DNA of 64,000 bases from Candidatus Staskawiczbacteria bacterium RIFCSPHIGHO2_02_FULL_43_16 (GTDB taxonomy: Bacteria; Patescibacteriota; Minisyncoccia; Minisyncoccales; Staskawiczbacteraceae), in NCBI GenBank assembly GCA_001821935.1, contig MHOU01000003.1, positions 11,873 to 75,872 on the forward strand. The letters are read 5' to 3'. This document shows positions 12,659 to 62,822 of the stretch, piece after piece (positions within the stretch are counted from its first letter, which is position 1; each line of letters opens with the position of its first letter). Made by a program: the position numbers and the translations under genes. The notes under the pieces were generated by a model. It saw only the letters and a program-made list of their open reading frames with translations, was not told the DNA's origin and made no database searches.

Positions 12659-12662
12659 TTTT

Positions 12663-38119: not shown

Positions 38120-38989
38120 TTGTCAAATCTGCTATACTCAACCCAAATGAATCTTCTTCCCCCATCACAAATCAAAGAATTATTGGCAAGCCATGGCGCC
38201 GTGCCCTCAAAACGGCTGGGGCAGAATTTTTTAATAGACAAAAATGCGCTGGCCAAGGTTGTGGAAGCGGCAAATTTACAACCAACTGACGTTATTTTAG
38301 AAATTGGCCCCGGTATCGGCACCCTAACCCAAGCCCTGGCTCAAAAAGTGAGAAAGGTGATTGCCATAGAGAAAGATGCCGGCATGGTGGATATATTGGG
38401 GAAAACCCTGAAAGACTTTAAGAATATTGAAATTGTCCAAGGCGATGCCTTAAAACTAGACCCTAGCCCCTATACCCTAGCCCCTTACAAGGTTATCGCC
38501 AACATTCCCTATTATATTACATCTCCATTGATTAGAAAATTTTTGGAAACACCAAGGCAACCGGAACACATGGTGCTCATGCTGCAAAAAGAAGTGGCTC
38601 AACGCATCGTGGCTCGCCCGCCAGACATGAGTATTTTAGCAGTTTCAGTGCAATTTTATGCGGAGGCTAAAATAGTTTCTTACGTTTCAAAAGGCTGTTT
38701 TTGGCCGGTGCCGAATGTGGATTCTGCCATCATTGCCATAAGATCGCGGAATGACGCAAAACCAAGCGGAAAAATTAACACTGATTTATTCTTTAGAATT
38801 GTAAGGGCCGGCTTTTCCCAACCAAGAAAGCAACTAGGTGGGAATTTGGTAAAAGAATTAAAGGGGAATAAAAAGGGGATAACCGAATGGCTTTTAGCCA
38901 ATAATATTCAACCCACCCAGCGGGCAGAGACCTTGAGCCTCAAAGACTGGCAAAACCTAACCAAAAATTCACCCTTAGGTGAAAATTGA
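38120..38989 (+). CDS. rsmA: 16S rRNA (adenine1518/1519-N6)-dimethyltransferase
   Basis: LGQNFLIDKNALAKVV… and SAM-binding EIGPGIGTLTQAL. Length as for KsgA. Confidence 0.85.
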   Translation: MSNLLYSTQMNLLPPSQIKELLASHGAVPSKRLGQNFLIDKNALAKVVEAANLQPTDVILEIGPGIGTLTQALAQKVRKVIAIEKDAGMVDILGKTLKDFKNIEIVQGDALKLDPSPYTLAPYKVIANIPYYITSPLIRKFLETPRQPEHMVLMLQKEVAQRIVARPPDMSILAVSVQFYAEAKIVSYVSKGCFWPVPNVDSAIIAIRSRNDAKPSGKINTDLFFRIVRAGFSQPRKQLGGNLVKELKGNKKGITEWLLANNIQPTQRAETLSLKDWQNLTKNSPLGEN

Positions 38990-39419
38990 ATATTTTTGGC
39001 TAACGTGCTATTATTTCATCATGGATACTCTTCCGTTAATACAGTATTGGGAGAAATCTTCAAAAAACGATTTTGCGGTAGCGCAGTATCTTTTCAAGTC
39101 TAAAAAATATTCCTACGCCTTGTTTTTCTGCCACCTCTCATTAGAAAAATTGTTAAAAAGTTTTATCGTCAAGCACAGTAAAAAGTCAGCGCCACTAGAG
39201 CATAATTTAGTGCGACTTGCCAATAAAGCTGGCTTCACCTTAAGCGGAGAACAAAAAGACTTATTATCAGAAATCACCACGTTCAATATCAAGGCCCGAT
39301 ATGACGATTACAAAACTAATTTTTATAAAAAAGCTACTCGGGTATATGCTCAAAGCTACATTACTGAAACAAAAAATCTCATAACATGGTTAAAAAAAAA
39401 TTACCCGCACATATCTTAA
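38979..39419 (+). CDS. HEPN-domain protein (probable start at MDTLPL, ~39000)
   Basis: …YALFFCHLSLEKLLKSFIV… matches the HEPN helix pattern. Paired with the downstream nucleotidyltransferase. Confidence 0.55.
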   Translation: MKIEYFWLTCYYFIMDTLPLIQYWEKSSKNDFAVAQYLFKSKKYSYALFFCHLSLEKLLKSFIVKHSKKSAPLEHNLVRLANKAGFTLSGEQKDLLSEITTFNIKARYDDYKTNFYKKATRVYAQSYITETKNLITWLKKNYPHIS

Positions 39420-39712
39420 AAACCGTGAATGAATTCAAAAAAACCTTGCAGGCGTCGGGAATGACGGTTGATTTTTTGATTGTGTTTGGATCCTACGCTA
39501 AAGGATTGGCCCGGGCCGATAGCGACATTGACGTGGGCGTTGTTTCAAAAATGTTCGGCAAAGACGATGTTGTGGAAATGCAGGAGCTTTTCAAAAAAGC
39601 TTCGCGGGTCAATACTTTTATAGAACCCTATCCCCTCAATCCCAAAGACCTAAAAGACACCTATAATCCTATTATCCAGGAGATTCTCAATACGGGTGTG
39701 GCGGTTTATTAG
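39386..39712 (+). CDS. Minimal nucleotidyltransferase (MNT; polymerase-beta-fold)
   Basis: LIVFGSYAKGLARADSDIDVGVV (GS…DxD). Overlaps the HEPN gene by ~30 nt. Confidence 0.7.
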   Translation: MVKKKLPAHILKTVNEFKKTLQASGMTVDFLIVFGSYAKGLARADSDIDVGVVSKMFGKDDVVEMQELFKKASRVNTFIEPYPLNPKDLKDTYNPIIQEILNTGVAVY

Positions 39713-39929: not shown

Positions 39930-39961
39930 GAAGGCAGTACAAAAAGGGGCTTTGTCGCCCT

Positions 39962-40138
39962 GAGACGAGAATTACGAAACCCCTCGGCGGTATTTTCCCA
40001 AAATTTAGAGATAGAAGTTTGATAGAATTTTTAGGCTTAGCCAAAGGCTCCGCCTAAAAATTATAGCGAACTTATAGCCTAAATTTTGGGAAAAGACCCC
40101 GAAACTCTTTTAAAATGGGGTTTCGTAATTCTCGTCTC
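39962..40138 (+). other. Structured ~180-nt leader with nested inverted repeats (22-bp outer arms); candidate riboregulator or MITE-like insertion
   Basis: Outer arms GAGACGAGAATTACGAAACCCC (39962-39983) and GGGGTTTCGTAATTCTCGTCTC (40117-40138). Inner pairs CCCAAAATTT/AAATTTTGGG and TTTTTAGGC/GCCTAAAAA. Confidence 0.4.
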
Positions 40139-40184
40139 CCGAAATCACAGTTCTTTCACCTCCTCATTCGAAAGGGGAATTTCC

Positions 40185-45131: not shown

Positions 45132-45312
45132 TTAAATGTTCTGCCCCAAGCAGAGTTTAATGGGAAAAGATAGTTTTCAAAGGACGACCCAGAACATCTG
45201 GGTTAATACTTAACCATATCATACTCATACGCCCTTGTCAATAGTGAATAATCTGTGCGCTTGCCAAGTGTTTTAATATGCTATAATTATCTATTAATTA
45301 GGAAATAATAAC

Positions 45313-45352
45313 GTAGCCGCCTAGACCCTAACCCCTAGACCCTACACCCTAA
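45313..45352. repeat. CTAGACCCTAACCCCTAGACCCTAYACCCTAA-family intergenic element (copy 1)
   Basis: cgcctagaccctaacccctagaccctacaccctaagc. Related copies at 48858-48900 (inverted), 49266-49306, and 52025-52062 (inverted, adjoining (TTTAGGG)6). Confidence 0.65.
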
Positions 45353-45355
45353 GCA

Positions 45356-45781
45356 ATGCCTCAATATCCCATTCCACAATTTATAGAAGAAGAGGGCAAA
45401 ATCATTTCCTTCCTCACCTTCCGGCAGTTTTGGTGGCTGGTGGGTGGCGGGGCGGTTATTGTTTTACTGTATTATATTTTGCCGTTTTATTTTTTCATTT
45501 TGACGGCACTTTTGGTGGCGGCCCTGGTGGGCACCATCGCCTTTGTGAAAATTAACAACATGTCACTGATAAAAATATTTTTGAACTTTTTAGGGTTTAG
45601 CCTGGGCGCCAAAACCTACACCTGGGAACGCAAAGAAACGCCGCGGAATAACGCAGAATCTTACGCGGAAAAACGCGGAATAAAAAACATCCCAGAGACT
45701 CTTGCGCGACCGCCCTTAAACTCAACTTTACGACCCAGCAGATTACAACAGATACAGAAAATAGTAGAAACAAAGCGATAA
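45356..45781 (+). CDS. PrgI/VirB3-like small membrane protein
   Basis: MPQYPIPQFIEEEGKIISFLTFRQFWWLVGGGAVIVLLYYIL… matches the PrgI-family N-terminal pattern (IPxxxxxxxKIxgxfTxRQfxxL). Two TM helices. A VirB4-like ATPase lies downstream. Confidence 0.5.
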   Translation: MPQYPIPQFIEEEGKIISFLTFRQFWWLVGGGAVIVLLYYILPFYFFILTALLVAALVGTIAFVKINNMSLIKIFLNFLGFSLGAKTYTWERKETPRNNAESYAEKRGIKNIPETLARPPLNSTLRPSRLQQIQKIVETKR

Positions 45782-45847
45782 TTTGATTATCGCCGCGAAA
45801 CGAAGCGAAATCTTACGCGGAAAGACGCGGAATAAAACGAATACAAT

Positions 45848-46246
45848 ATGTTATTATATGAAAAAGAGTCATATAAAATTAGGAAGGCAGTATTTAATGT
45901 TTACAAAGAATTGGGATGCGGCCACAAAGAAACCGTTTATCAAAAAGCGTTTTACATAGCGCTACTAAAAGAAGAATTAAAAATAGAAAAAGAAAAACGC
46001 CTGCCAGTAATATTTGATGGCGCCAATGTCGGCACATATATTCCAGATTTCCTTATTGAAGAAGCCATTATTGTTGAACTAAAATCCAAATCATTTATTA
46101 CCAAAGAAGACACATTGCAATTCTGGCAATATCTTAAAAGCACAAACTATAAGTTAGGTTTTTTAATAAATTTCGGCATACCCGGCAAAGCACAAATCAT
46201 TCGGCGCGTGTATGATACAGCAAGAAATAATTCACTAAACTATTAA
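45848..46246 (+). CDS. GxxExxY-family (PD-(D/E)xK-like) protein; cassette flanked by inverted CGCGGAAT repeats
   Basis: …LPVIFDGANVGTYIPDFLIEEAIIVELKSKSFITKEDTLQFWQYLKSTNYKLGFLINFG… matches the GxxExxY family. Flank 45815-45845 is tcttacgcggaaagacgcggaataaaa (a direct copy also lies at 45656-45690 inside the upstream CDS). Flank 46250-46300 is ttccgcgtgattccgcgttaatttccgcgcgattccgcg (inverted). Confidence 0.7.
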   Translation: MLLYEKESYKIRKAVFNVYKELGCGHKETVYQKAFYIALLKEELKIEKEKRLPVIFDGANVGTYIPDFLIEEAIIVELKSKSFITKEDTLQFWQYLKSTNYKLGFLINFGIPGKAQIIRRVYDTARNNSLNY

Positions 46247-46303
46247 AGGCTTTCCGCGTGATTCCGCGTTAATTTCCGCGCGATTCCGCGAAAATCCATC
46301 ATC

Positions 46304-46966
46304 ATGGATTCCGCTACACAGGATTTTTTAGAAATCAAAGACATCCGCGAGGGGGTTTTGGTGTTGAAAAATAACGGCTTGCGGGGAATTTTGATGGTTT
46401 CTTCCTTGAATTTCGCCTTAAAATCTTCCGAAGAACAGTCTTCCATTATTTACGCCTATCAGAGTTTTTTAAATTCCCTGGATTTTTCCTGCCAAATTGT
46501 CATCCAATCACGCAATGTCAACATCACCCCCTATTTGGACACGGTTAAAAACTTGGCAGAAAAACAAACCAATGAATTGCTGAAAGTGCAAACTTCTTCA
46601 TACGCGGATTTTATCAAAGAACTGGTACAGGGTGATAACATCATGACCAAAAGTTTTTACGTGGTGGTCCCCTACACCTTGACCGAGGCGTTAGGGGCGG
46701 GGGCGGCCCTTAATAAATCTGGCTTATTTGATATTTTTAAAAAAAATAAAAACAAAAACCAACAGCTGGGCGATGAAGATTTTGAAAAATGCAAAAACCA
46801 GCTGTGGCAAAGGATGGAATTCTTGGCTATGGGACTAAAACGCTGCGGGCTGGATGTCATGCCCCTGACCACCCCGGAACTGATTGAACTGTTTTGGGCC
46901 ATGCACCACCCCGACCAAGCAGAAGTGGGATATTACCCGGAAATACTGCCTGAATTATTGAAATAA
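46304..46966 (+). CDS. Hypothetical protein resembling the N-terminal region of VirB4-type ATPases (no NTPase motifs)
   Basis: LEIKDIREGVLVLKNNGLRGILMVSSLNFALKSSEEQSSIIYAYQSFLNSL… parallels the N-terminus of the next gene (IINIRDIIAPPYIGIGQDSIKLGEK…FFIFSYPRYLNTGWLSPAINL…). Confidence 0.45.
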   Translation: MDSATQDFLEIKDIREGVLVLKNNGLRGILMVSSLNFALKSSEEQSSIIYAYQSFLNSLDFSCQIVIQSRNVNITPYLDTVKNLAEKQTNELLKVQTSSYADFIKELVQGDNIMTKSFYVVVPYTLTEALGAGAALNKSGLFDIFKKNKNKNQQLGDEDFEKCKNQLWQRMEFLAMGLKRCGLDVMPLTTPELIELFWAMHHPDQAEVGYYPEILPELLK

Positions 46967-46968
46967 AT

Positions 46969-47077
46969 TTTTAATTTCCAATTTTTAAATAATTTTTTAA
47001 TGTTAAAATTTATAAAATACCACGCGCTTAAAAATTAGCAAATTAAAATATTATTTAAAAATTGGAAATTAAAAATT
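46969..47077. repeat. AT-rich palindromic element, core TAATTTCCAATTTTTAAATAAT with its inverted copy ~55 nt away; second locus at 60433..60500
   Basis: tttttaatttccaatttttaaataat … attatttaaaaattggaaattaaaaatt. The same 22-nt core and inverted partner occur at 60433-60500. Confidence 0.65.
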
Positions 47078-47084
47078 AATAGCT

Positions 47085-48872
47085 ATGGCATTTTTTAAGA
47101 AAAAAATTGAAGCTGAAGAAAAGATTTTTGAGCAGGAGACCATCAACATCCGCGACATCATTGCCCCGCCCTACATTGGTATTGGACAGGATTCCATAAA
47201 ACTGGGCGAAAAGATTGCCAAGTCTTTTTTCATCTTTTCGTATCCGCGCTACTTAAACACGGGCTGGCTTTCACCTGCCATCAATTTAAATGTGCCCATG
47301 GACATTTCCTTTTTCATCCACCCAGTTTCCAGCCAACTTATCTTAAAAAAATTACGTTCAAAAATTACCCAGGTGTCTTCAGAATTAATAGAGCGGCAGG
47401 AAAAGGGGTTGATCCGCGATCCCGCTCTTGAAACCGGCTACCAAGACATTGAAAACCTACGGGATAAAATCATCACCGCCCAGGAAAAAATGTTCCGCTT
47501 CGGGTTGTATATTACGGTTTATGAAGATACTCCGGAAAAGTTAAAAGAAACCGAAAGCACCTTCCGGTCTATTTTTGAATCGCGGCTGATTTACATCAAG
47601 CCAGCTATCTTTAAACAAAAAGAGGGCTTTATATCCACCAGCCCTTACGGCATGGATTTGCTGGACGTAAACGTGCCCATGGACACCGAACCGCTTTCCA
47701 CCACCTTCCCATTCGTTTCCTTTGACCTAAGCAGCAATGAAGGCATTTTATACGGCATCAACCGCCACAATAATTCCTTAGTGTTATTTGACCGTTTCAC
47801 GTTAGAGAATGCAAATATGGTTGTCTTCGCTAAATCAGGATCCGGTAAGAGCTACGCCATAAAATTGGAAATTTTGCGCTATTTGATGTGGGGCGTAGAT
47901 GTGATTGTCATTGACCCGGAAAACGAATATGAATTTTTGGCAGACGGGGTGGGGGGTGACTTCTTTAAAATTTCCCTTACTTCGGGCAACCATGTCAACC
48001 CCTTTGACCTACCGGTGCCCGGCCCGGACGACAGCCCCGAAGATATTTTGCGCTCAAACATCATTAACCTGGTGGGGCTGCTGCGCATCATGCTGGGCGG
48101 CTTAACCGCCGAAGAAGACAGTATTTTAGACCAAGCCATCACAGAAACTTACGCCGTACGTGACATTACCCCGCAGAGCGACCCGGCCAAATGGCAGGAG
48201 AACATTCCCATCATGTCTGATTTTGCCGAAGTGTTGGAAAACATGACCGGGGCCGAAAGCCTGGCCCGACGCCTTAAAAAATTCACCACCGGAACCTTTG
48301 GCGGATTCTTCAACCAAAGGTCAAACCTTAAAATTGATAAGAATTTTATTGTCTTTGGCATTCGTGACATGGAAGAATCGCTCAAAACCATCGCCCTGTA
48401 TATCATTATGCGCTATGTTTGGAACATTGTGCGCACTAATTTGAAAAAGCGAATTTTGGTGGTGGACGAGGCTTGGTGGCTAATGCAATCTGAAGATGGC
48501 GCTTCATTTTTGTTTGGTCTGGTCAAGCGCGGCCGCAAATATTGGCTGGGGGTTACCACCATCACCCAAGACATTGAAGACTTCATGCGCTCAAGCTACG
48601 GCAAAGCCATTATTACTAATTCTTCACTGCAACTATTACTTAAACAATCTCCGGCGGCCATTGAAATACTGCAAAAAACCTTTGACCTGACCGAACAGGA
48701 AAAAATGCTTTTGACCGAGGCTTCGGTAGGCGAAGGGCTCTTTTTTGCCGGCAAAAAACATGTCTTTATGAGTGTTAAAGCCAGCTACACCGAAGACCAG
48801 ATTATTACCACCAACCCCGGTGAAGTGGAAAAAATCAAAGAAGCGCGAAGACAATTAGGGTCTAGGGGATAG
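47085..48872 (+). CDS. VirB4/TrbE/PrgJ-family type IV secretion ATPase
   Basis: VirB4-type N-terminus. Walker A VVFAKSGSGKSYAIK. Walker B RILVVDEAWWLM. C-terminal …GKKHVFMSV…. 595 aa. Confidence 0.75.
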   Translation: MAFFKKKIEAEEKIFEQETINIRDIIAPPYIGIGQDSIKLGEKIAKSFFIFSYPRYLNTGWLSPAINLNVPMDISFFIHPVSSQLILKKLRSKITQVSSELIERQEKGLIRDPALETGYQDIENLRDKIITAQEKMFRFGLYITVYEDTPEKLKETESTFRSIFESRLIYIKPAIFKQKEGFISTSPYGMDLLDVNVPMDTEPLSTTFPFVSFDLSSNEGILYGINRHNNSLVLFDRFTLENANMVVFAKSGSGKSYAIKLEILRYLMWGVDVIVIDPENEYEFLADGVGGDFFKISLTSGNHVNPFDLPVPGPDDSPEDILRSNIINLVGLLRIMLGGLTAEEDSILDQAITETYAVRDITPQSDPAKWQENIPIMSDFAEVLENMTGAESLARRLKKFTTGTFGGFFNQRSNLKIDKNFIVFGIRDMEESLKTIALYIIMRYVWNIVRTNLKKRILVVDEAWWLMQSEDGASFLFGLVKRGRKYWLGVTTITQDIEDFMRSSYGKAIITNSSLQLLLKQSPAAIEILQKTFDLTEQEKMLLTEASVGEGLFFAGKKHVFMSVKASYTEDQIITTNPGEVEKIKEARRQLGSRG

Positions 48873-48900
48873 GGTTTAGGGTCTAGTAAAACCAAAAACG
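48858..48900. repeat. CTAGACCCTAA-family element (inverted copy), left flank of the four-helix-bundle cassette
   Basis: aattagggtctaggggatagggtttagggtctagtaaaac. Confidence 0.6.
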
Positions 48901-48910
48901 CAACATCCTG

Positions 48911-49267
48911 ATGTTAAAATCACATAAAGAACTTATTGTTTGGCAAAAATCTATTAAATTAGTAAAGGAAATTTATATTCTTACTAGTAACTTTCCTCAA
49001 AATGAGATTTATGGACTATCTTCTCAAATGAGACGCGCGGCGGTATCTATACCATCAAACATTGCCGAAGGATATTCAAGAAAGAACATAAAAGAGTATT
49101 TACAGTTTTTAAGGATCAGCTTTGGATCTTCCACAGAACTGGAAACACAAATAATTATTGCAAAAGATTTATACAAAAGCGTGGATTATAAGCCCGCCGA
49201 ATTATTACTAGAAGAAGTATTGAAAATGTTAAATACTATGATAGAAAAATTAGAAAATAACGCGTAG
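48911..49267 (+). CDS. Four-helix-bundle protein (the family formerly called '23S rRNA intervening-sequence protein')
   Basis: …WQKSIKLVKEIYILTSNFPQNEIYGLSSQMRRAAVSIPSNIAEGYSRKNIKEYLQFLRISFGSSTELETQIIIAKDL… matches the family consensus. Confidence 0.7.
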   Translation: MLKSHKELIVWQKSIKLVKEIYILTSNFPQNEIYGLSSQMRRAAVSIPSNIAEGYSRKNIKEYLQFLRISFGSSTELETQIIIAKDLYKSVDYKPAELLLEEVLKMLNTMIEKLENNA

Positions 49268-49306
49268 CCGTCTAGACCCTAACCCCTAGACCCTATACCC
49301 TAAAGC
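49266..49306. repeat. CTAGACCCTAA-family element, right flank of the four-helix-bundle cassette
   Basis: tagccgtctagaccctaacccctagaccctataccctaaagc. Confidence 0.6.
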
Positions 49307-49310
49307 AGAG

Positions 49311-49742
49311 ATGAAAAATTTGACGTCGCCAGAGGCAATTTTAATACTACCCATAGCAGTGGTGCTAGATTTGGTGGGTTTTATTATATTTTGCCTGGGA
49401 ACTTGGGTTGGCATTGACGACTATGGTATACTTGAAATAATCGGGGGGGCGATTATTGGGCTATGGATGATATTGCGGGGCAGCGGCAGTTCCGTGGGCC
49501 AGCAAAAAAGTGCAGAGCCCCAAGAAAAACCGGTGCCGCCCAAAAAAGAACTATCAACGGATAAAAATACCCTGGCGCCTAAAGCTAAAACCCTGCAAGC
49601 GAAAGATTTGGTAAAAAATCCAAAGGAATTCGCAAAAAAAACCTTTAAAACCTTTATTTGGAATTATATTGTAGAGTTAATTCCTTTTGTCGGGGGATTT
49701 TGGCCGGGGTGGACCATTATTGTTTATAAAACACTAGATTAA
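49311..49742 (+). CDS. Hypothetical membrane protein (three to four TM helices)
   Basis: ILILPIAVVLDLVGFIIFCLGTWVGI, ILEIIGGAIIGLWMIL, C-terminal ELIPFVGGFWPGWTIIVY. Confidence 0.5.
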   Translation: MKNLTSPEAILILPIAVVLDLVGFIIFCLGTWVGIDDYGILEIIGGAIIGLWMILRGSGSSVGQQKSAEPQEKPVPPKKELSTDKNTLAPKAKTLQAKDLVKNPKEFAKKTFKTFIWNYIVELIPFVGGFWPGWTIIVYKTLD

Positions 49743-51436
49743 TGAAGAGAAATTATTCAATATATATCTTGTTATTTGCGGCAACCATGTTGCTGGTTTC
49801 AATGGCTCAACCGGCGCTGGCACTTGAAGTAACTTATCCTAAAATAGGGACTTTTGAAATAACCTCAGACTCAACCCTGCTTCAATATATAGAATATTTT
49901 TTTGCTTTTGCCATTGCTATATCCGGCATACTGGCAGTTGTTATTTTGGTTATTTCCGGCCTGCAAATACTGGTATTTGCGGGCAGCCCGGAAAAAATAA
50001 ATGAAGCCAAAGAAGGCTTATGGGCCGCAGTTTTGGGGATTGTCCTTTTATTTGCTTCTTTTATTATTATGATGACGATTAATCCCAACCTTGTTAACCC
50101 CAGCACCCAAGCACTACCCCAATCTGACCCTGATGGGGTATTTTTAGATGTTCAATATACTCAGATAACATTTGAAGGTTTCCCTAATCCTGGGCGCGGC
50201 CCCTGCACTGAAGCTCGGTGCAAAAAAACATTTCTCGCCCCGCAAGAGAATCCAAGCATAGGAGAAACCACAGATTTTTCATACAATACCGGTGTTTCAG
50301 CATTTGGCATGGCGACAATGCATGGCGATACTGCAACAAGCCGTATTAGATATAGGTGCACCCCGCCCACCAGCGGCAAAGATGGCACCAGGCTTATGGT
50401 TTCGGTATATGCTAACAAAAATTTTCAAATAGATCGAATTGCCAATGGGGTTGGCGGCAATGTAAGAACATATTTTTTAAAATGCAATAAGAATGACAAT
50501 AATTTTGTCATTGTAGATGCAGGTGTTGTAGAATCTTATAAGTGGGAATATGAAAAACCTGGCGTTTATTTTTATTTAAAAGAAAATTGCCAGGAAAACC
50601 CGGTAACCACTGGACTTACAAGTGCCACGGGCGCGAGCTATACCAGCATAAACTCTAAATTATATACTGGAAGTTCAATAATAGAGCCTTTTGATTGCGA
50701 AGTTGGTGGAGGTGGTGATGATTGGGGCGAAGGGAATGATACTAATACGAACACGTGTCAACCCAGACAAGGCGTACTCCAGGTGCCCACCTGCATGAGA
50801 ATTGTAAATAGTGAACAAGAACAATACGGGACTATTTTAAACCAAAGCGAAGCGGCTGTTGGAGCGTGTACCGAACCTATTTTAAATAAAGATATTCCCA
50901 CTGGTAATGAAATAATAAAAGAAGTTTCTAAGCCTGTACCAACTTTTAATGAATCGCCGAATAATGAGGGTCCCAAATTTGCCTATGTGTTCAAGCATGT
51001 TCCGGCAGATAAATACCCATCCGGAGAAATCAGGTTTGAAAGCGCAGCTACCTATAATGAAGTACTGCCGAATGACTTCACGCTCGAAAACAAGCGCCTT
51101 TACCATTTGCCTGATCTTTATGGTGGAAGCCTTAATTATTTTATTAAAGCAGGGTATCTCCTAAATCCCAACACCACCCCCCTTCCAGAAGAATGTGATA
51201 CCAGTAAAGAGTGTTTGAAATTTATAAGGTCACCCCGTACCGGAGCTTTCAGAACAGTGCTTTATAGTGAAGATGAAAACGGTTTTCGCGATAATGTTTG
51301 CCAAGTGTATACTTGCCAAGAAAATAACTTTGGTGAATTTGTATCAAACAATAATCGTTGGATTTTCAATTCCAGAAGAAAGGTATATGACATGTTTATT
51401 ATTCCCATGCCCAAGCAAACTTGCGACAGGTCATAA
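49742..51436 (+). CDS. Large secreted/membrane protein: signal peptide, two pilin-like (VirB2/TrbC-like) TM helices, then a ~430-aa Cys-containing extracellular domain
   Basis: MKRNYSIYILLFAATMLLVSMAQPALA. Then FFAFAIAISGILAVVILVISGLQILVFAGSPEKINEAKEGLWAAVLGIVLLFASFIIMMTI. Large hydrophilic domain. A strong terminator follows. Confidence 0.5.
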   Translation: MKRNYSIYILLFAATMLLVSMAQPALALEVTYPKIGTFEITSDSTLLQYIEYFFAFAIAISGILAVVILVISGLQILVFAGSPEKINEAKEGLWAAVLGIVLLFASFIIMMTINPNLVNPSTQALPQSDPDGVFLDVQYTQITFEGFPNPGRGPCTEARCKKTFLAPQENPSIGETTDFSYNTGVSAFGMATMHGDTATSRIRYRCTPPTSGKDGTRLMVSVYANKNFQIDRIANGVGGNVRTYFLKCNKNDNNFVIVDAGVVESYKWEYEKPGVYFYLKENCQENPVTTGLTSATGASYTSINSKLYTGSSIIEPFDCEVGGGGDDWGEGNDTNTNTCQPRQGVLQVPTCMRIVNSEQEQYGTILNQSEAAVGACTEPILNKDIPTGNEIIKEVSKPVPTFNESPNNEGPKFAYVFKHVPADKYPSGEIRFESAATYNEVLPNDFTLENKRLYHLPDLYGGSLNYFIKAGYLLNPNTTPLPEECDTSKECLKFIRSPRTGAFRTVLYSEDENGFRDNVCQVYTCQENNFGEFVSNNNRWIFNSRRKVYDMFIIPMPKQTCDRS

Positions 51437-51499: not shown

Positions 51500-51976
51500 T
51501 CACTTGGGGGTAATCACCACCCGCCGATCAAGGCCTTCCCCCTGGCTTTCCGTGGCCACGTCATCACGCCCGGCAAGTTCGGCGTGAATGATCCGGCGTT
51601 CATAAGAACTCATAGGAGGCAGGGTTTTGCTGATTTTGGTGAGTGAAACCTGGTCGGCCAACTCGTTGGCTGTTTTTTTCAAGTAAGCCAATTTTTGGGC
51701 CTGGTAGTTATTAATATCAAGCAGAATGTGGCAGGCCCGGCCAAGCTTTTTGGTGGCCAGCATGCGCAAGGTGCGCTGAAGGTCTAACAGGGTTTTGCCG
51801 TTTTCGCCTATTAAAAACTGGGGTTCTGAAAGCGTAACACGCACCTGAGCCGAGTCAACAGTTTCATCGGCCGCCACACCCTCCACCACATCCAGAGTAA
51901 AACCATCCACGGTCATATTGGTCAACAGTTCTTGCGTTAAACCTTTTATTATTTCCAATTCCTCTTTGGTAATCAT
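51500..51976 (-). CDS. jag: Jag/SpoIIIJ-associated RNA-binding protein (KH plus R3H)
   Basis: 158 aa. C-terminal R3H-like …IHAELAGRDDVATESQGEGLDRRVVITPK. Position downstream of yidC in the rpmH-rnpA-yidC-jag cluster. Confidence 0.75.
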   Translation of the reverse strand: MITKEELEIIKGLTQELLTNMTVDGFTLDVVEGVAADETVDSAQVRVTLSEPQFLIGENGKTLLDLQRTLRMLATKKLGRACHILLDINNYQAQKLAYLKKTANELADQVSLTKISKTLPPMSSYERRIIHAELAGRDDVATESQGEGLDRRVVITPK

Positions 51977-52062
51977 AGTTAGGGTTTAGGGTTTAGGGTT
52001 TAGGGTTTAGGGTTTAGGGTTTTACTATACCCTAGACGCTAGCCCCTAGACCCTATCTTTTT
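51977..52062. repeat. Telomere-like tandem heptamer (TTTAGGG) x6 followed by an inverted CTAGACCCTA-type element
   Basis: gttagggtttagggtttagggtttagggtttagggtttagggttttactataccctagacgctagcccctagaccctatc, between yidC and jag. Confidence 0.75.
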
Positions 52063-52765
52063 GTTTGAGAATGAAGTATTGCTGGACAATGGAAAAAGCG
52101 CCGCTGATAATCCAGTACAAACCAAGGGCAGAGGGGAGTTTCCATAAAATAATGACGGTGATGAAGGGGAAAAAATACACCATCTGTTTTTGCATCATGG
52201 TGGCCATGGTGGTGTCTTTGGGCTTAGATTTATCCTGGGCCGGCAACAGCATTTTTGTCTGGAAAAATTGTAACAGCCCTGCCACAAAGGCCAGGGGAAT
52301 GTTTGGCTTTGCTAAATCCACCAAACCAACAAACATGGCGTTAATCTGGCCCGGGTTTGCCACAAAGCTGTACAAATGATCCAGGGCCTCAGGGCGCAGG
52401 CCATGCCAGAACACTTGATAAAGGGCAATGAGAATAGGAATTTGCACCAGCGCCAACAATAAGCCGCTAAACGGGTTTATCTTTTCTGTACGGTACATTT
52501 CTAAGGTTTCCTTGGCCTGTTTTTCTTTATCATCTTTATACTTTTTTTGTATCTCTTGCAGCTTGGGCTGAAGGGCCTGCAAAGCTTTCTGGGAATGCAA
52601 AGCCTTTACGGCAACCGGGTACAAAATAACCCTGATAATCAGGGTCAGTAAAATAATGGCCAGGCCGAAGTCATGGCCGGGCAGGTAATTATAAATAAAA
52701 ATCAGGGAATTAAAAAGCGGGTAGTATAGGGCGGCGTTAAAAATATCAGCAATAAAACCAAACAT
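52046..52765 (-). CDS. yidC: Membrane protein insertase YidC (short form)
   Basis: 239 aa, five TM helices. …YPLFNSLIFIYN…, conserved Oxa1/YidC C-terminal region. Synteny with rnpA and rpmH. Confidence 0.85.
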   Translation of the reverse strand: MFGFIADIFNAALYYPLFNSLIFIYNYLPGHDFGLAIILLTLIIRVILYPVAVKALHSQKALQALQPKLQEIQKKYKDDKEKQAKETLEMYRTEKINPFSGLLLALVQIPILIALYQVFWHGLRPEALDHLYSFVANPGQINAMFVGLVDLAKPNIPLAFVAGLLQFFQTKMLLPAQDKSKPKDTTMATMMQKQMVYFFPFITVIILWKLPSALGLYWIISGAFSIVQQYFILKQKDRV

Positions 52766-52767
52766 TA

Positions 52768-53094
52768 TTATAGTTTCTTAAATAAATGATCCACACTTTC
52801 TTTTAACTCAAAAAGCTCTTTTTTTTGTATTCCCGGCAGGGCGATAAACACAACGTCGGCGGGCGGGGTTGTTTTTGTGGCAGCAGAAATAATACTGCGC
52901 AGTTGGCGCTTAACCTTATTGCGCACAGTGGCCTTATTGGAAACTTTCTTGCTGACAATGAACCCAAACCGGCTTTCTGGCAAATTACTGTCCAAAACTT
53001 TGGCGATTAAAAAATTCCCCTTAATACTTTTGCCCGCGCCAAACACCGCGTCAAAATCTTTTTTTTTGGTTAACCGATTTTGTTTGGGGAGCAT
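52768..53094 (-). CDS. rnpA: Ribonuclease P protein component
   Basis: MLPKQNRLTKKKDFDAVFGAGKSIKGNFLIAKVL…, the RnpA pattern. Immediately downstream of rpmH. Confidence 0.85.
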   Translation of the reverse strand: MLPKQNRLTKKKDFDAVFGAGKSIKGNFLIAKVLDSNLPESRFGFIVSKKVSNKATVRNKVKRQLRSIISAATKTTPPADVVFIALPGIQKKELFELKESVDHLFKKL

Positions 53095-53098
53095 AAGG

Positions 53099-53233
53099 TT
53101 AAACAGTCAGCTTTGCCCTTCCTTTGGCCCGCCTGCGCGCCACCACCTGCTTACCGCTTTTGGTTTTTTTACGCTTCAAAAAACCGTGGGTCCTGGCCCT
53201 TTTCTTCTTTTTTGGGTTATAGGTGAAGCTCAT
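53099..53233 (-). CDS. rpmH: 50S ribosomal protein L34 (44 aa; below the ORF-track cutoff)
   Basis: Minus-strand ATG at 53233. Translates [44 protein letters not shown], the canonical L34 sequence. TAA at 53099-53101. Confidence 0.8.
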
Positions 53234-53337
53234 AGTTGTTGTATTTAATATTAATTTTGTATAATATTGTTAGTGTACTAGAAAATGCGCCCTTGGTCAA
53301 ATGTATTGTGCGTCTGCCCAAAAACACTCCACACAGG

Positions 53338-53346
53338 TTATCCACA
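53338..53346 (+). promoter_or_regulatory. DnaA box (TTATCCACA) upstream of dnaA
   Basis: Perfect consensus 9-mer in the rpmH-dnaA intergenic region. Confidence 0.6.
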
Positions 53347-53451
53347 GCTTAATAACAGATGGGGGCATTTTCCCCTCATTTGACTCTTGGCTTTAAGATT
53401 GATATTTTTATATATACTATTATTTTTGCGCGCTTGGCGATAACCGTATCC

Positions 53452-54816
53452 ATGAACAATAACGAACTCTGGCAATCAGTGCTGGCCCAAATGCAACTTT
53501 CCATATCTAAGGCCAATTTTGCCACTTGGTTTCAAAATACCGAAATTTCCCAAAAAGAAAATGAAAAAGTGGTTATTTCGGTTCCCAATGCCTTTTCTAA
53601 AGAATGGCTGAGCAACAAATACTATAAAATCATGCTCAAAACCATGCGTGACATTGATGGGGGTATTAAAGAATTGGAATTTGTAATAAACCCACAAGCC
53701 CTGCGAAGCCTGCCCACCCAAAGCCAGCCCCAAAAAGAGATTGAAAAAATAGACGCGGAGCAGTTAAAATTTGACGAGTTTAAAGTTAATAAAGAAACCA
53801 ATTTAAACCCCCGGTATACCTTTGAAAATTTTGTGGTGGGCTCTTTTAATGACCTGGCTTACGCCGCCGGCCAAGCGGTTTGTGAAAATCCTGGATATGC
53901 CTATAATCCACTGTTTATTTACGGCGGGGTGGGGCTTGGTAAAACCCACCTTATGCAGGCTATTGGCAATAAAATAGCCGGCGACCCTAAAAAAAAGAAG
54001 GTAAAATACATTCCTTCTGAAAAGCTTATTTCAAACATTGTGGCGGCGATCAGGTCCAACACCATGGAAGCATTTAAGGCCAGCCTGGCCCCTATTGATG
54101 TCTTAATTATTGACGACGTCCAGTTTATTGCCGGAAAGGTCAAAACCCAGCAGGAATTTTTCCATGCCTTTAATTCCCTTTACGAAAAAAACAAGCAAAT
54201 TATCCTATCTTCCGACCGCCAACCTAACGCCATCCCAGAGCTTGAAGAGCGCCTGCGGTCACGCTTTGAAGGAGGGATGATTATAGATGTTAACTTACCT
54301 GATTATGAAACCCGGCTGGTAATATTAAAGCAAAAATTACAGGAAAAAAACCTGAAACTGCCCGAAGAAATTTTAGAATACATCGCCTCTCATGTAAAAA
54401 AGAATGTCAGGGAATTGGAGGGGGCCCTCAATAGTGTACTGATTTACTATAAAATTAACAGTAATATCCCCACCCTGGATGTGGCCAAAAAACTGCTCAA
54501 AAGCTTTATTTTTTCACCCTTTGACGTGACTAATTATAAAAAAATCATTGAAGTGGTTTCTAAATTTTACAACCTTGAAGAAAAACACCTCTTTGATGTT
54601 ACGCGGCGCAAAGAAATAGTAAAGCCCCGCCAAATTGCCATGTTTTTGTTGCGCAAAGAATTAAAATACTCATTTCCCGCCATCGCCCGCAAATTCGGCG
54701 GTAAAGACCACACTACCGTAATTTACGCCTACAAAAAAATCTTGCGGGAAGTGGAAGAAAACAATAAACTAACCGAAGAAATAAACTTAATAAAGCAGCG
54801 GGTATATAGTGGATAA
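53452..54816 (+). CDS. dnaA: Chromosomal replication initiator DnaA (start at MNNNELWQ)
   Basis: N-terminal W…ATWF pattern. AAA+ Walker A GGVGLGKTHL. Walker B LIIDDVQF. C-terminal DNA-binding helix …FGGKDHTTVIYA…. Confidence 0.9.
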   Translation: MNNNELWQSVLAQMQLSISKANFATWFQNTEISQKENEKVVISVPNAFSKEWLSNKYYKIMLKTMRDIDGGIKELEFVINPQALRSLPTQSQPQKEIEKIDAEQLKFDEFKVNKETNLNPRYTFENFVVGSFNDLAYAAGQAVCENPGYAYNPLFIYGGVGLGKTHLMQAIGNKIAGDPKKKKVKYIPSEKLISNIVAAIRSNTMEAFKASLAPIDVLIIDDVQFIAGKVKTQQEFFHAFNSLYEKNKQIILSSDRQPNAIPELEERLRSRFEGGMIIDVNLPDYETRLVILKQKLQEKNLKLPEEILEYIASHVKKNVRELEGALNSVLIYYKINSNIPTLDVAKKLLKSFIFSPFDVTNYKKIIEVVSKFYNLEEKHLFDVTRRKEIVKPRQIAMFLLRKELKYSFPAIARKFGGKDHTTVIYAYKKILREVEENNKLTEEINLIKQRVYSG

Positions 54817-54900
54817 TATAGGGGATAACTTGAAGGTATTTTAAAAAAGAAAAAACTCACCCCTTTATTCCCCTAACTGGTTATACATATAAAAAACACC

Positions 54901-54909
54901 TTATCCACA
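54901..54909 (+). promoter_or_regulatory. DnaA box (TTATCCACA) in the dnaA-dnaN intergenic AT-rich region
   Basis: Perfect consensus. The adjacent 54930-55020 is extremely AT-rich (candidate DNA-unwinding element). Confidence 0.6.
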
Positions 54910-55029
54910 ATTTATAGGTAAAAAAATTAATCCTACTTTGGGATTAAAAAAGATTAAAAATAGATTAAAAAGCCATTAATAATAACAATAATAATATATT
55001 AAATATATTATTTACTATTATAGGGTTGG

Positions 55030-55038
55030 TGTGGATAA
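55030..55038 (-). promoter_or_regulatory. DnaA box (TTATCCACA, reverse orientation)
   Basis: tgtggataa on the plus strand, just upstream of dnaN. Confidence 0.6.
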
Positions 55039-55049
55039 TATAACTTATT

Positions 55050-56177
55050 ATGAAGATTGAAATATTGAAAGAAAATTTAAAATCGGGAATTAATGTAGTG
55101 GAAAGGGTAGTGGGGAAAAATATCTCATTGCCTATTTTAGATAATATGTTAATGACAGCCGAAGACACTTTTTTAAGCTTGGTTTCCACAGATTTGGAAA
55201 CCGCCATTAAACTTTGGATATTGACCAAAATCATTAAAAAAGGAAGTGTGGTGGTACCGGCAAAATTCCTTTCCAGTCTTATTACCTCGCTGCCTAATGA
55301 AAAAATTACCATTGAGGCCAAGGGCCAGGATTTATCTGTGGAGTCCAGCGCCATAAAAACCCAAATAAAAGGTTTTAATCCTGAAGATTTTCCTATCATC
55401 CCGGAATTTAACCGGGACGAATTTTTAGAAGTGGATAACAAGATTTTTTTTGAAGGGCTGGGGCAGGTTATTAATATTGCTTCGCCCTCACAAAGCCGGC
55501 CGGAAATTTCCGGTATTTATTTTCATTTTTTGAAAAATATTATTACCATAGCGGCCACAGACAGTTTTAGGTTGGCGGAAAAACATATCACCCTCAAAGA
55601 GCCGGTCAAAAAAGAATTTTCTTTTATTTTACCACAAAAACCAGCCCGTGAATTAATGGCTATTTTAGAAAATCAGGAAGGGATTCTGAAAATATTTTTT
55701 TCCCAAAACCAAGCCCTTTTTGAACTGCCTATGAAAGAAACCAACCACCCCAAAGCCCAAATTACCTCCCGGCTCATTGACGGCGAATACCCCAACTACC
55801 AGGATATTATCCCCGCCAAATTTAAAACCAATGCCGTGGTGAAAAAAGATGAATTTTTAACTCAGATAAAAACCGCTTCGCTGTTTTCGGGCAAGGTGAG
55901 CGAGGTGAAAATCGCCCTGAATGCCGAAAAAAAAGAGCTGGAAATTTTTTCTAAAAATCCGGATATTGGTGAAAACCGGTCCAGTATGCCCATTCAAATA
56001 AGCGGCCAGTCCATAGAAGTTTCTTTTAATTATAAATATATTATTGACGGGCTGGCTAATATTAAAGGTTCAGAAGTGATGTTTGATGTAAGCAAGGAAG
56101 AGGGTCCCTGTATTTTGCGGCCGGTGGGAGATGGCAGTTACATGTATGTGGTCATGCCCATTAAATCAATGCAGTAA
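55050..56177 (+). CDS. dnaN: DNA polymerase III beta sliding clamp
   Basis: 375 aa. MKIEILKENLKSGINVVERVV…, three-domain clamp length. dnaA-dnaN synteny. Confidence 0.9.
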   Translation: MKIEILKENLKSGINVVERVVGKNISLPILDNMLMTAEDTFLSLVSTDLETAIKLWILTKIIKKGSVVVPAKFLSSLITSLPNEKITIEAKGQDLSVESSAIKTQIKGFNPEDFPIIPEFNRDEFLEVDNKIFFEGLGQVINIASPSQSRPEISGIYFHFLKNIITIAATDSFRLAEKHITLKEPVKKEFSFILPQKPARELMAILENQEGILKIFFSQNQALFELPMKETNHPKAQITSRLIDGEYPNYQDIIPAKFKTNAVVKKDEFLTQIKTASLFSGKVSEVKIALNAEKKELEIFSKNPDIGENRSSMPIQISGQSIEVSFNYKYIIDGLANIKGSEVMFDVSKEEGPCILRPVGDGSYMYVVMPIKSMQ

Positions 56178-58560: not shown

Positions 58561-58737
58561 ATTCCTCTTCAATAGGGTTGTCATCCAAATCATCATCCCC
58601 TTCTTTGTCATCGTCTTTTTCTTCTTCGTCTAATTCTTCCTTCTCTTCTTCATCGTCGTCGCCAAGGATGACGGCGTCGTCATCAAAGTCATCGGCTTGG
58701 TTCATGGCGTTTTTTACAAAATCCTCCTCCATCTTTT
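58561..58737 (-). CDS. Small highly acidic protein (58 aa; below the ORF-track cutoff)
   Basis: Minus-strand ATG at 58737. Translates MEEDFVKNAMNQADDFDDDAVILGDDDEEEKEELDEEEKDDDKEGDDDLDDNPIEEE*. A terminator follows. The listed plus-strand ORF over the same bases is low-complexity Ser-rich. Confidence 0.25.
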
Positions 58738-58744
58738 GAAAACT

Positions 58745-58830
58745 CGAAACTCGAATTTCGAAATTCGAAACATATTTTGAATTTGTTTCGTATTTCGGAT
58801 TTCGTATTTCGGATTTAATTTTTATTAACT
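58745..58830. repeat. Inverted arrays of heptamer repeats (NCTCGAA x4 then TTTCGNA x4)
   Basis: actcgaaactcgaatttcgaaattcgaaacatattttgaatttgtttcgtatttcggatttcgtatttcggattt. Confidence 0.6.
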
Positions 58831-58888
58831 TCTACCATTATATTTTTTCAGGCACTATTGTCAAGGGCTCGTTCGTCCACAGGGGCTT

Positions 58889-59161
58889 GGGAGTGCGGGA
58901 TCCGAACTAAAATCATCTTGAGAAGCGCAAAAATGAGATCAGTTTTTCGGATTTTTGAGAAGGCGATGTTGCAAGACATCGCCGCCGATAAAATTTGAAG
59001 AAATGAGCCATTTTTGCGCTTCCCTCCAGGCGTCAAGATTTTGCCTCATCTGCGCGCGTTTTGCTCGTCAGCGATGTTAAAAACATCGCTTCCTCACAAG
59101 AACCCGCGCATCTAAAGCAAAATCTTGACGCTCAATCGATTTAGTTCGGATCCCGCACTCC
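58889..59161. mobile_element. MITE-like ~273-bp element with perfect 22-bp terminal inverted repeats and internal hairpins; right end overlaps the last codons of ruvC
   Basis: Terminal inverted repeats GGAGTGCGGGATCCGAACTAAA (58889-58912) and TTTAGTTCGGATCCCGCACTCC (59140-59161). Internal GGCGATGTtgcaagACATCGCC and AGCGATGTTaaaAACATCGCT hairpins. No ORF of its own. Confidence 0.45.
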
Positions 59162-59665
59162 TAACACTGCACAGAGCGCGATTCCCAGGGCATCGGCCGC
59201 GTCATCTTTTTTACGGCCCTTGGTTTTATGGTCAAAACCATCCATGTCCAGCAGCTGCTTGGTCATTTCTTGCACCTGTTTTTTTTCCGCCCGGCCATAG
59301 CCCACCACAGTCATCTTTACTTGCAACGGGGTAAATTCCATAACCGGGATCTTCTTTTGGGCTGCCGCCAACAAAATAACCCCCTTGGCTTGGCTCACCG
59401 GCATGGCGGTTTTTAAGTTCTTAAAGAAGAAAAGGCTTTCAATAGATATTAAATCCGGTTTATGTTTATCAATCAACTTTCCGATTTCTTTATGAATAAT
59501 ATTCAACCTGTCTCCGGGCGAATCAAATTTTGTAGTAGTAATGCATCCAAAATCAATCACTTTGGGTTTTTCGTTTCTATCCTGGCGCAGGTGTTTGGAG
59601 ACGTTGGTTTTGATAATCGCGTATCCCATCAAGGCCACGCCCGGATCCACGCCTAAAATGATCAT
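59141..59665 (-). CDS. ruvC: Crossover junction endodeoxyribonuclease RuvC
   Basis: MIILGVDPGVALMGYAII… (catalytic Asp). 174 aa. yebC-ruvC synteny. Confidence 0.9.
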   Translation of the reverse strand: MIILGVDPGVALMGYAIIKTNVSKHLRQDRNEKPKVIDFGCITTTKFDSPGDRLNIIHKEIGKLIDKHKPDLISIESLFFFKNLKTAMPVSQAKGVILLAAAQKKIPVMEFTPLQVKMTVVGYGRAEKKQVQEMTKQLLDMDGFDHKTKGRKKDDAADALGIALCAVLGVRDPN

Positions 59666-60396: not shown

Positions 60397-60432
60397 AATG
60401 TGAATTTTTAATTTTGTAATTTCCAATTTTTA

Positions 60433-62803: not shown

Positions 62804-62822
62804 AGCTTAGAAAACTAATTAG

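Follow-up and report, generated by a model that had tools for sequence, protein, structure and literature searches.

Background

Where the intervening sequences of bacterial ribosomal RNA (rRNA) come from has been a question since about 1990. The four-helix-bundle (FHB) proteins, also called 23S rRNA intervening-sequence proteins or S23p, and the GxxExxY proteins form very widespread, multi-copy families, and we know of no function assigned to either. In Coxiella, the 23S intervening sequence carries an S23p open reading frame (ORF) in the loop of a stem processed by RNase III, which cuts at the first of three tandem heptamers (GACAGAT) located upstream of this ORF (PMC4990558). The S23p of Xanthomonas is a homopentameric toroid (PMC4990558, citing Lin 2006). 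ORFs of the same family, PF05635, are also found within insertions in the 16S and 23S rRNA of the Candidate Phyla Radiation (CPR) (PMC11270868). The present analysis concerns one FHB gene and one GxxExxY gene that lie in a type IV secretion system (T4SS)-like operon on 64,000 nt of DNA from Candidatus Staskawiczbacteria bacterium RIFCSPHIGHO2_02_FULL_43_16 (assembly GCA_001821935.1, contig MHOU01000003.1, positions 11,873 to 75,872), a stretch referred to below as the window. The two genes belong to discrete, repeat-bounded single-gene insertions, repeatedly inserted and decayed, whose flanking arms have an architecture specific to each family and which are built like rRNA intervening sequences.

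A separate literature describes heptamer repeats between bacterial genes. Xanthomonas genomes each hold 70-75 convergent pairs of the intergenic heptamer GGGAATC, and Nostoc has GGGGA(T/C)T (PMC4692102); intergenic TAACTGA heptamers occur in Beggiatoaceae, cyanobacteria and Bacteroidetes (PMC4679880). Neither paper connects the heptamers with FHB genes or with mobile elements, and the searchable literature, with subscription journals not covered, contains no paper that describes FHB or GxxExxY genes as repeat-bounded cassettes outside rRNA. What is new here is the setting in operons transcribed as messenger RNA (mRNA), the periodic arms specific to each family, and an apparent generality across phyla.

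Two repeat-bounded genes in one operon

Each module consists of one promoterless ORF between a left and a right arm, and the two arms repeat, in inverted orientation, a motif array specific to the protein family. The modules are almost always co-oriented with the host operon. The FHB gene of the window (48911-49267, plus strand) scores well within its family (PF05635, E 7e-36, 123.1 bits against a cutoff of 33.8; TIGR02436, E 7e-35, 119.5 against 24; NF008911, 139.3 against 137), and its product is similar in sequence to PDB entries 2GSC (E 1.2e-34) and 2RLD, both deposited with five chains. Its left arm (48855-48886, plus strand) reads TTAGGGT CTAGGGG ATAGGGT TTAGGGT CTAG, with five TAG cores at period 7, and its right arm (49272-49303, plus strand) reads CTAGACC CTAACCC CTAGACC CTATACC CTAA. 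Each arm is 32 nt long and holds 4.4 heptamers (TAGGGNN on the left, NNCCCTA on the right), and the two are 88% complementary. The pattern of these heptads, taken as a 24-mer, is matched 9 times in the window, where 0.00 matches would be expected, and the arm alignment scores lie above those of all 100 shuffles. Comparison of C-termini with those of relatives shows that the last codons of the upstream VirB4 ATPase (LGSRG-stop) are encoded by the left arm. Between the end of the right arm and the start codon at 49311, where the next host gene begins, there are 7 nt. In the predicted RNA fold of the cassette, 48855-48886 pairs with 49272-49303 in both the minimum free energy (MFE) and the centroid structure (z = -4.04).

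The GxxExxY gene (45848-46246, plus strand) is likewise a clear family member (PF13366, PDDEXK_3, E 3.7e-33, 114.8 bits against a cutoff of 22; TIGR04256, E 5e-32, 110.7 against 35). NCBI annotates the exact protein, from a 310-kb contig of a Candidatus Staskawiczbacteria (Parcubacteria) metagenome-assembled genome, as hypothetical. Its name-giving motif is G25-H-K-E28-T-V-Y31. Residues E28, D67, E77 and K79 are invariant across 35 homologues, so that the catalytic residues of a PD-(D/E)XK nuclease are retained. The AlphaFold model (pLDDT 92, topology alpha-alpha-beta-beta-beta-alpha-beta) has the generic fold of these nucleases, and its best Foldseek matches are PD-(D/E)XK nucleases, at weak scores (TM 0.4-0.5, E at least 1.5e-3), among them lambda-exonuclease-like proteins, Cas4, Hjc and splicing endonucleases. 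The left arm (45791-45837, plus strand) is built of CGCGGAA-type cores, and the right arm (46251-46294, plus strand) of four TTCCGCG cores, at 46252, 46262, 46274 and 46284, spaced 10-12-10. Over 39 aligned nucleotides the arms are 72% complementary; they pair in the MFE and centroid folds, and the double CGCGGAA motif has 4 matches in the window against 0.05 expected from shuffles.

An additional array of the left-arm type lies in frame inside the upstream prgI gene (45639-45685, plus strand, 47 nt) as a direct copy. Its identity to the left arm at 45791-45837 is 85%, and its complementarity to the right arm of that module is 79%. An alignment of PrgI proteins shows it standing in place of a variable linker (ESPYPFKPIK...), and it is absent from two loci, L167 and L171, that hold the orthologous cassette. 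It may have arisen by gene conversion or by an earlier insertion.

Both proteins evolve under purifying selection (dN/dS 0.10-0.27 for FHB and 0.10-0.16 for GxxExxY, hence 0.10-0.27 over both, and 0.11-0.13 for the least saturated pairs). Both cassettes are AT-richer than their surroundings, at about 32-35% GC, or some 8-10 points below the window mean of 42.6%. A scan for promoters and terminators gives nothing beyond chance inside the cassettes, and neither family has a second copy within the window. The first-pass annotation of this DNA had placed both ORFs in a VirB-like cluster between inverted repeats, with one further direct copy in the prgI-like gene at 45656-45690. Profile matches bear out the genes, and the bracketing is real and beyond chance, with the arm coordinates corrected to those given above; the extra copy likewise exists, at its revised position. 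The periodicity of the arms and the low GC of the cassettes had escaped that annotation, as had a cassette remnant at 45295-45352 and a gene-less hairpin at 46963-47080, both described below.

It is hardly credible that the modules are remnants of diversity-generating retroelements (DGRs), with FHB as the Avd protein, or that they are integron gene cassettes. Matches of the FHB protein to Avd profiles exist at sub-threshold scores (27.2 bits for PF22296, whose cutoff is 40, and 21.5 for NF033474, whose cutoff is 80), and single promoterless ORFs with imperfect inverted repeats do recall integron cassettes. Against this, the neighbourhood has no reverse transcriptase, template repeat or variable repeat and no integrase; the arms flank the ORF on both sides, where an integron cassette has one 3' attC site; there is no cassette array; and Rfam gives nothing at gathering thresholds for the modules.

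Filled and empty junctions in related operons

We compared 80 loci from related genomes, whose VirB4 ATPases are 52-86% identical (individual loci are cited by number, as L001). The relatives keep a backbone of PrgI, VirB4 N-terminal ORF, VirB4 C-terminal ORF, in some the 143-aa gene, and pilin, continuing to jag and yidC. Empty junctions in this backbone measure 2-80 nt, and between prgI and the first VirB4 ORF an empty junction consists of a stop codon, 2-20 nt and an ATG. Comparison with junctions this small shows that the module has been inserted. Inserts of about 450-690 nt are found at four junctions, in differing species, and a filled junction always holds arms along with the gene; the arms extend from just past the upstream stop codon to within a few nucleotides of the downstream ATG. 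Presence or absence is polymorphic at four sites, and at each the arms go with the gene, an outcome in favour of the first-pass annotation.

The junctions differ in what they hold. Upstream of prgI there are FHB genes only, in L001, L005, L007, L011, L025, L057, L070 and L071 and, as a pseudogene, in L048. Between prgI and the VirB4 N-terminal ORF, FHB genes are present in L002, L004, L005, L010 and L020, and GxxExxY genes in the window and in L167-L171. The junction between the two VirB4 ORFs has FHB genes in L003, L005, L011 and L065, a GxxExxY gene in L001, and gene-less hairpins in the window, L004, L006 and L007; no hairpins were noted at the other three junctions. After the VirB4 C-terminal ORF, FHB genes are found in L004 and in the window, and GxxExxY genes in none. 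One locus, L005, holds three FHB cassettes, and different FHB subfamilies, or a GxxExxY gene, can occupy the same junction in different species. PF05635 is detected in 17/17 of the inserted FHB-like ORFs tested. All 23 matches to FHB in CPR loci are co-oriented with the operon, and 21 of 23 cassette ORFs lie within the operon core, where 38% would be expected from sequence length (p = 1.8e-7).

These data bear on a further explanation, that FHB and GxxExxY are resident, immobile host genes whose hairpins are regulatory (in RNA processing, termination or translation coupling), with the patchy distribution produced by repeated loss from an ancestor carrying the full set. The enrichment in the operon core, the strong co-orientation, the purifying selection and the fixed, invariant state of the cassette in its population would all suit such genes. 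Repeated loss does not account for different FHB subfamilies or GxxExxY sharing one junction across species, for cassette GC about 8-10 points below the window average, for identical duplicate modules at two junctions of L004 and full and deleted copies in L001, or for the same modules inside CRISPR-Cas, nrd, par and kai-like operons of other phyla. We consider the resident-gene explanation very improbable.

Arms are specific to cassettes and travel with them

The first-pass annotation had left room for the repeats to be generic elements such as might stand at most gene boundaries. They are instead family-specific motif arrays. Cassette genes have a median score of 44 for flanking inverted repeats; among 717 other genes the median is 17 and the 95th percentile 25 (Mann-Whitney p = 1.4e-13 for the comparison). 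Period-7 arrays stand on both sides of 14/21 cassette genes as against 30/709 others (Fisher p = 8e-14). The designs follow the family: about 4-5 heptamers per arm for FHB, and four CGCGGAA cores per arm, spaced 10-12-10, for GxxExxY.

Sequence comparison shows that gene and arms have been copied together, both to other sites of the same genome and to loci that are unrelated. In L004, two identical FHB modules of about 485 nt (TGAAACGAGGGGCTAG ... GCTAGCCCCTAAAAA) occupy two junctions, and a third junction, the one between the two VirB4 ORFs, has a solo hairpin whose arms are related. In L001 a full GxxExxY module is accompanied, one junction away, by a copy that lacks 291 nt internally and whose retained ends are 151/156 and 79/80 identical to the full module. 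Six further GxxExxY cassettes, with 54-80% amino acid identity, are spread over five kinds of setting, namely the same T4SS junction, a KaiC-like/KaiB operon, a response-regulator/PilB locus, a locus without recognisable neighbours, and a giant-ORF locus. Four cores spaced 10-12-10 make up the right arm of all six and the left arm of most, and the same motif array lies upstream of every GxxExxY relative examined, in other contexts too. Synonymous divergence between these relatives is near saturation (dS at least 1) and the arms are nonetheless kept, which argues that the GxxExxY arm motif is conserved in sequence and not just in pairing. The suggestion in the first-pass annotation that these are small mobile cassettes gains support from the identical pair in L004, the full and deleted copies in L001, and the arms that GxxExxY modules keep at unrelated loci. 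A scan of viral contigs for GxxExxY gave nothing.

The giant-ORF locus (L177-L179, 1486-1951) has its GxxExxY cassette between, or splitting, giant ORFs with products up to 4614 aa. There is a 4-nt overlap of start and stop, and the gene caller has called the arms as coding sequence.

For the GxxExxY module taken by itself, a free-standing homing endonuclease gene would offer another account: the enzyme would cut junction alleles that have no cassette, repair templated by a filled allele would bring the gene in, and the repeats would have a regulatory role or be incidental. The intact PD-(D/E)XK residues are in keeping with this, as are weak fold matches to the PD-(D/E)XK homing endonuclease I-Bth0305I and to resolvases and the position of the gene between conserved operon genes, polymorphic among relatives. 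Homing needs homology at the target, and related copies with the same arms stand at unrelated loci that offer none; moreover a deletion derivative has moved to, or persists at, the second junction in L001, and FHB modules share this lifestyle without a nuclease. We find homing distinctly unlikely.

Remnants and gene-less hairpins

The modules also appear to leave decay products, which by sequence are internally deleted, truncated, or hairpin forms without an ORF. Directly upstream of the prgI start codon, at 45295-45352 (plus strand), lies an FHB cassette truncated at its 5' side, of which the last 17 nt or so of the ORF and the heptad right arm remain. This remnant is about 90% identical to 49248-49303, with 41 of its nucleotides 95% identical to 49263-49303, and the alignment reaches the AATTAG(G/A)AAATAA of the FHB ORF end. 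The FHB cassette that precedes prgI in L167 was considered as an orthologue of the orphan arm at 45312 and rejected, since it is of the AT-rich YDLEERT subtype.

Several hairpins in the window have arms of this kind and no gene. One, AT-rich (46963-47080), fills the 118-nt spacer between the two VirB4 ORFs with 53-nt arms of internal period about 7 (dG -33.6) and is probably an ORF-less cassette derivative; a similar one stands at 60406-60497 (60409-60500 in a second delimitation), between yebC and a comEA-like gene. The jag-yidC spacer holds a heptad hairpin (51979-52055; (TTAGGGT)x6.3 on one side and CTAGACG-CTAGCCC-CTAGACC on the other, dG -44.5) whose right arm is of the same type as that of the FHB cassette; in L001 this spacer is only about 37 nt, too short for such a hairpin. 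Further period-7 hairpins are found between nusA and UPF0102 (26190-26280), between pnp and the next ORF (34304-34380), and between PBP1A and ruvC (58736-58818). These three and the one at about 60406-60500, with about 4.4 units per arm, are probably ORF-less relatives of the cassettes. A solo CGCGGAA hairpin in L171 (940-1010) has the arm motif of the GxxExxY family.

Hairpins of this sort also fit an account in which the arms are the ends of non-autonomous elements, like MITEs (miniature inverted-repeat transposable elements), moved in trans by an unlinked recombinase or transposase, with the ORFs as passengers or stabilising cargo. ORF-less hairpins with the same arms are indeed common (46963-47080, 51979-52055, 34304-34380, 26190-26280, 58736-58818 and about 60406-60500 in the window, the L004 spacer, and L171 at 940-1010), FHB lacks a recognisable catalytic domain, and Xanthomonas has its 70-75 inverted heptamer pairs per genome (PMC4692102). 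Yet the design of the arms goes with the cargo family from phylum to phylum, as it would not with a random passenger, and both proteins are under purifying selection. There is moreover no transposase among the window ORFs scanned and no target-site duplication to be seen. An origin as MITE-like ends is, on balance, unlikely.

An in-frame CTA-type heptad array is also present inside rsmA/ksgA (38456-38485; CTAGACC CTAGCCC CTATACC CTAGCCCC), where it encodes LDPSPYTLAP; compared with solved RsmA structures, the loop containing it is variable. The array may be coincidental, or a fragment of an arm that has been co-opted.

The FHB design across metagenomes and phyla

The FHB design extends well beyond this operon. 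For 68 independent metagenomic FHB genes with enough flank, 47-71% identical, flanking inverted repeats score above all shuffles in 53, and a period of 7 or 14 dominates in 39 of these 53 on each side. Left arms have the form (TAGNNNN)n and are rich in G on the sense strand, and the right arm often starts within the stop codon. Median arm length is 29-31 nt, or about 4.1-4.3 units, with a broad spread of 14-100 nt. Neighbouring genes are co-oriented upstream in 59/65 cases and downstream in 60/73. Arms of the AT-rich "YDLEERT" subfamily mostly have period 7, with two related cassettes at period 9 and one at period 8. Inverted heptamer arrays surround 12 of 14 plasmid FHB genes, from Cyanobacteriota, Bacteroidota (Riemerella), Gemmatimonadota (Gemmatirosa) and Alphaproteobacteria (Azospirillum); the remaining two, from Nostoc PCC 7120, have arrays without clear inversion. 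Cassettes on cyanobacterial plasmids (L086, L193, L195, L083, L085) are wedged between cas6 and cas4 (twice), cas10 and cmr3, nrdB and nrdA, and parA and parB, and arrays in Pseudanabaena reach 10-15 heptamers.

In a set of 72 cassettes, Watson-Crick pairs account for 1793 of 2031 arm positions, and the sequences differ between cassettes. That pairing is kept despite this difference indicates that arm complementarity is maintained. The G/C polarity is strong, with G in the left arm in 456 pairs and C in 132.

Several readings of the arrays were tried and set aside. An excess of G-U wobble would be a signature of sense-RNA pairing; mismatches comprise 47 G-U and 44 A-C among the 2031 positions, with no excess. 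The TAG every 7 nt puts stop codons in all three frames in 44/72 left arms, which might make the heptads arrays of stops; this reading is not general, since many arms outside the CPR (TCAGGAG, GGAGGGC, GGACAGA) are free of stops. Arms as oriented sites in direct order are ruled out by the mirror-symmetric order of unit variants in the clear cases (L130, L119, L122). Telomerase-like addition of G-rich repeats at a break fits the polarity and is contradicted by the identical arm variants of duplicated modules. A G-quadruplex is not a general property either: the left arm in the window fits a G4 motif and most arms (TAGCTTT, TAGAAAA, AT-rich) do not.

Proposed mechanism and its weighing

We think it fairly probable that each gene is the cargo of an intervening-sequence-type insertion module in an operon spacer, with RNase III processing and recognition of its own arms as the putative activities behind it. 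In the operon transcript the arms are predicted to pair, forming a stem of about 30 bp that encloses the ORF. By analogy with rRNA intervening sequences, RNase III would cut this stem, and the cut would release the cassette RNA and leave the flanking cistrons unharmed. Arm recognition would fall to the protein that each module encodes: the GxxExxY nuclease would cleave the ends of its module, and the FHB protein, a pentameric ring, would bind the array of heptamers. Recognition of own arms would explain why arm design is family-specific and, for GxxExxY, why sequence is conserved beyond synonymous sites. The fixed 10-12-10 layout, about one helical turn, together with that conservation, argues for protein recognition in the GxxExxY module. 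A match of five heptamers to the FHB pentamer is only suggestive.

A number of observations weigh against this module reading. The exact FHB protein is found only at this site in 24 contigs, its arms are identical in 10 assemblies, and these 10 show no heptad copy-number polymorphism among strains such as is seen in Coxiella; a single-site module so invariant in its population is fixed and gives no sign here of moving at present. The L004 and L001 copies show no target-site duplication, and recombinases, reverse transcriptases and transposases number zero among the 30 window ORFs scanned with Pfam. The first-pass annotation had described the cassettes as lacking a transposase of their own, a statement that is uncertain where GxxExxY is concerned, since that module encodes an intact nuclease. 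The whole-cassette fold of the GxxExxY module has a z-score of only -1.59. The lack of a G-U excess means that nothing singles out selection on sense-RNA pairing. The correspondence of five heptamers to a pentamer rests on a broad distribution of arm lengths (14-100 nt), and FHB heptamers differ so widely between related proteins that a simple fixed recognition code is unlikely.

More broadly, and as a tentative proposal about which we are rather doubtful, FHB and GxxExxY genes with periodic arms might constitute a widespread, unrecognised class of minimal mobile cassettes. Their proteins, a pentameric ring in one family and a small PD-(D/E)XK nuclease in the other, would be sequence-specific end-binding or end-cutting factors for their own arms, rRNA would be one landing site among many, and ORF-less derivatives would be the source of the excess of tandem heptamers and convergent heptamer pairs in bacteria (Xanthomonas GGGAATC, cyanobacterial STRR and TAACTGA repeats). 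Such generality may connect rRNA intervening sequences with the unexplained heptamer repeats of bacterial genomes. The same modules enter ordinary operons, of T4SS genes here and of CRISPR-Cas, nrd, par and kai-like genes elsewhere, where they split operons, change gene termini (the tail of VirB4 is encoded by an arm) and confuse annotation. If binding proves specific, the small proteins and their repeat arrays would be natural pairs that could be exploited.

The host operon and other features of the window

The host operon is read on the plus strand. It comprises a PrgI-like T4SS protein (45356-45781; PF12666, E 2.9e-8), kept in related loci; a VirB4 N-terminal (TraC/TrsD-like) ORF (46304-46966), assigned by NCBIfam matches to VirB4 N-terminal positions; and a VirB4-type ATPase (47085-48872; NF045971, E 3e-107). 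A profile match places a T4SS pilin-like gene (49742-51436) next in the operon, with a 143-aa ORF between it and the ATPase. The genes yidC, jag, dnaA and dnaN adjoin the operon (51500-56177); neighbours of this kind argue that it is chromosomal, in an origin-type neighbourhood, with no obvious mobile island.

In every related CPR locus that has the region, VirB4 is encoded as two separate ORFs, with spacers down to 2 nt, and the split is therefore ancestral. The hairpin at 46963-47080 is ruled out as its cause, the ORFs being separate even where the spacer is 2 nt.

Three large, very stable intergenic hairpins that have no heptad structure lie at 39955-40145 (191 nt, -95.8 kcal/mol), 58880-59170 (291 nt, -148.6 kcal/mol; it overlaps the 3' end of ruvC) and 62650-62810 (161 nt, -66.6 kcal/mol), and none of the three matches an Rfam family at gathering thresholds. 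Directly after rsmA, and ahead of the 191-nt hairpin, a HEPN-domain ORF (38979-39419) overlaps a nucleotidyltransferase ORF (39386-39712), and the two resemble a HEPN/MNT-type toxin-antitoxin pair. Rfam reports a LOOT RNA at 12707-12838 on the minus strand (58.3 bits against a gathering threshold of 46.4), overlapping the 5' part of a mechanically called ORF at 11804-12844.

Comparison with known systems

Several described elements share part of the design of these modules. Like MITEs and like repetitive extragenic palindromes and bacterial interspersed mosaic elements (REP/BIME), the modules are small, intergenic, multi-copy and bounded by inverted repeats, encode no transposase, and have ORF-less forms. 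Unlike them, the full-length forms carry a conserved ORF under selection, the arms are periodic, no target-site duplication is seen, and no partner of the REP-associated tyrosine transposase (RAYT) or insertion sequence (IS) type has been identified; in terms of MITE or IS structure, the inverted ends are present, the L004 and L001 copies show no duplication, and the window ORFs scanned include no transposase. The likeness to integron cassettes lies in a single promoterless ORF, expression by read-through, and an imperfect palindromic element resembling a recombination site. An integron cassette has one 3' attC, inserts by attI and IntI, and joins an array, whereas the modules have arms on both sides and are scattered in ordinary operons with no integrase. 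Free-standing homing endonuclease genes are, as the modules are, small selfish genes between tightly packed conserved genes, polymorphic among relatives, and the GxxExxY product is a nuclease; FHB differs in having no nuclease, the arms are conserved in every cassette, and copies stand at non-homologous loci.

The intergenic heptamers of Xanthomonas and Nostoc, the short tandemly repeated repetitive (STRR) sequences of cyanobacteria and the TAACTGA repeats resemble the solo hairpins here in their period of 7, their roughly 2-6 or more units, their intergenic position and their G-rich polarity. They often lie directly upstream of start codons, often form convergent pairs, and occur in phyla rich in FHB genes. 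The arrays described here bracket an FHB gene or are plausibly ORF-less derivatives of such cassettes, and by analogy they may be the same as the heptamers of the literature.

The rRNA intervening sequence, as found in Leptospira, Coxiella, Xanthomonas and Brucella and in the CPR, has, like the FHB module, a PF05635 protein whose ORF lies in the loop of an inverted-repeat stem; stem heptamers (Coxiella), a GC content below that of the host, and ORF-less hairpin versions are further points of likeness, and its sporadic distribution and horizontal acquisition match those of the modules here (PMC4990558, PMC11270868). The arms of both cassettes (32-39 nt, 72-88% complementary) pair in predicted folds as a stem-loop does. 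Heptamers are present on both sides of the FHB gene, at 4.4 units, and are inapplicable to the 10-12-10 design of GxxExxY. The known insertions occupy rRNA (helix 25 or 45 of 23S, or 16S), whereas the host here is a protein-coding operon: Rfam finds no rRNA in the window, and the insertions lie between protein-coding genes. Other differences are that both arms are full heptamer arrays, that the putative substrate of RNase III is here a predicted stem of about 30 bp, and that the FHB ORF is under purifying selection where the S23p ORF of Coxiella is reported to be decaying (PMC4990558). The connection to rRNA intervening sequences that the first-pass annotation drew for both genes thus holds for FHB, at the level of architecture, through the stem heptamers of Coxiella and the S23p ORF carried in their loop (PMC4990558).

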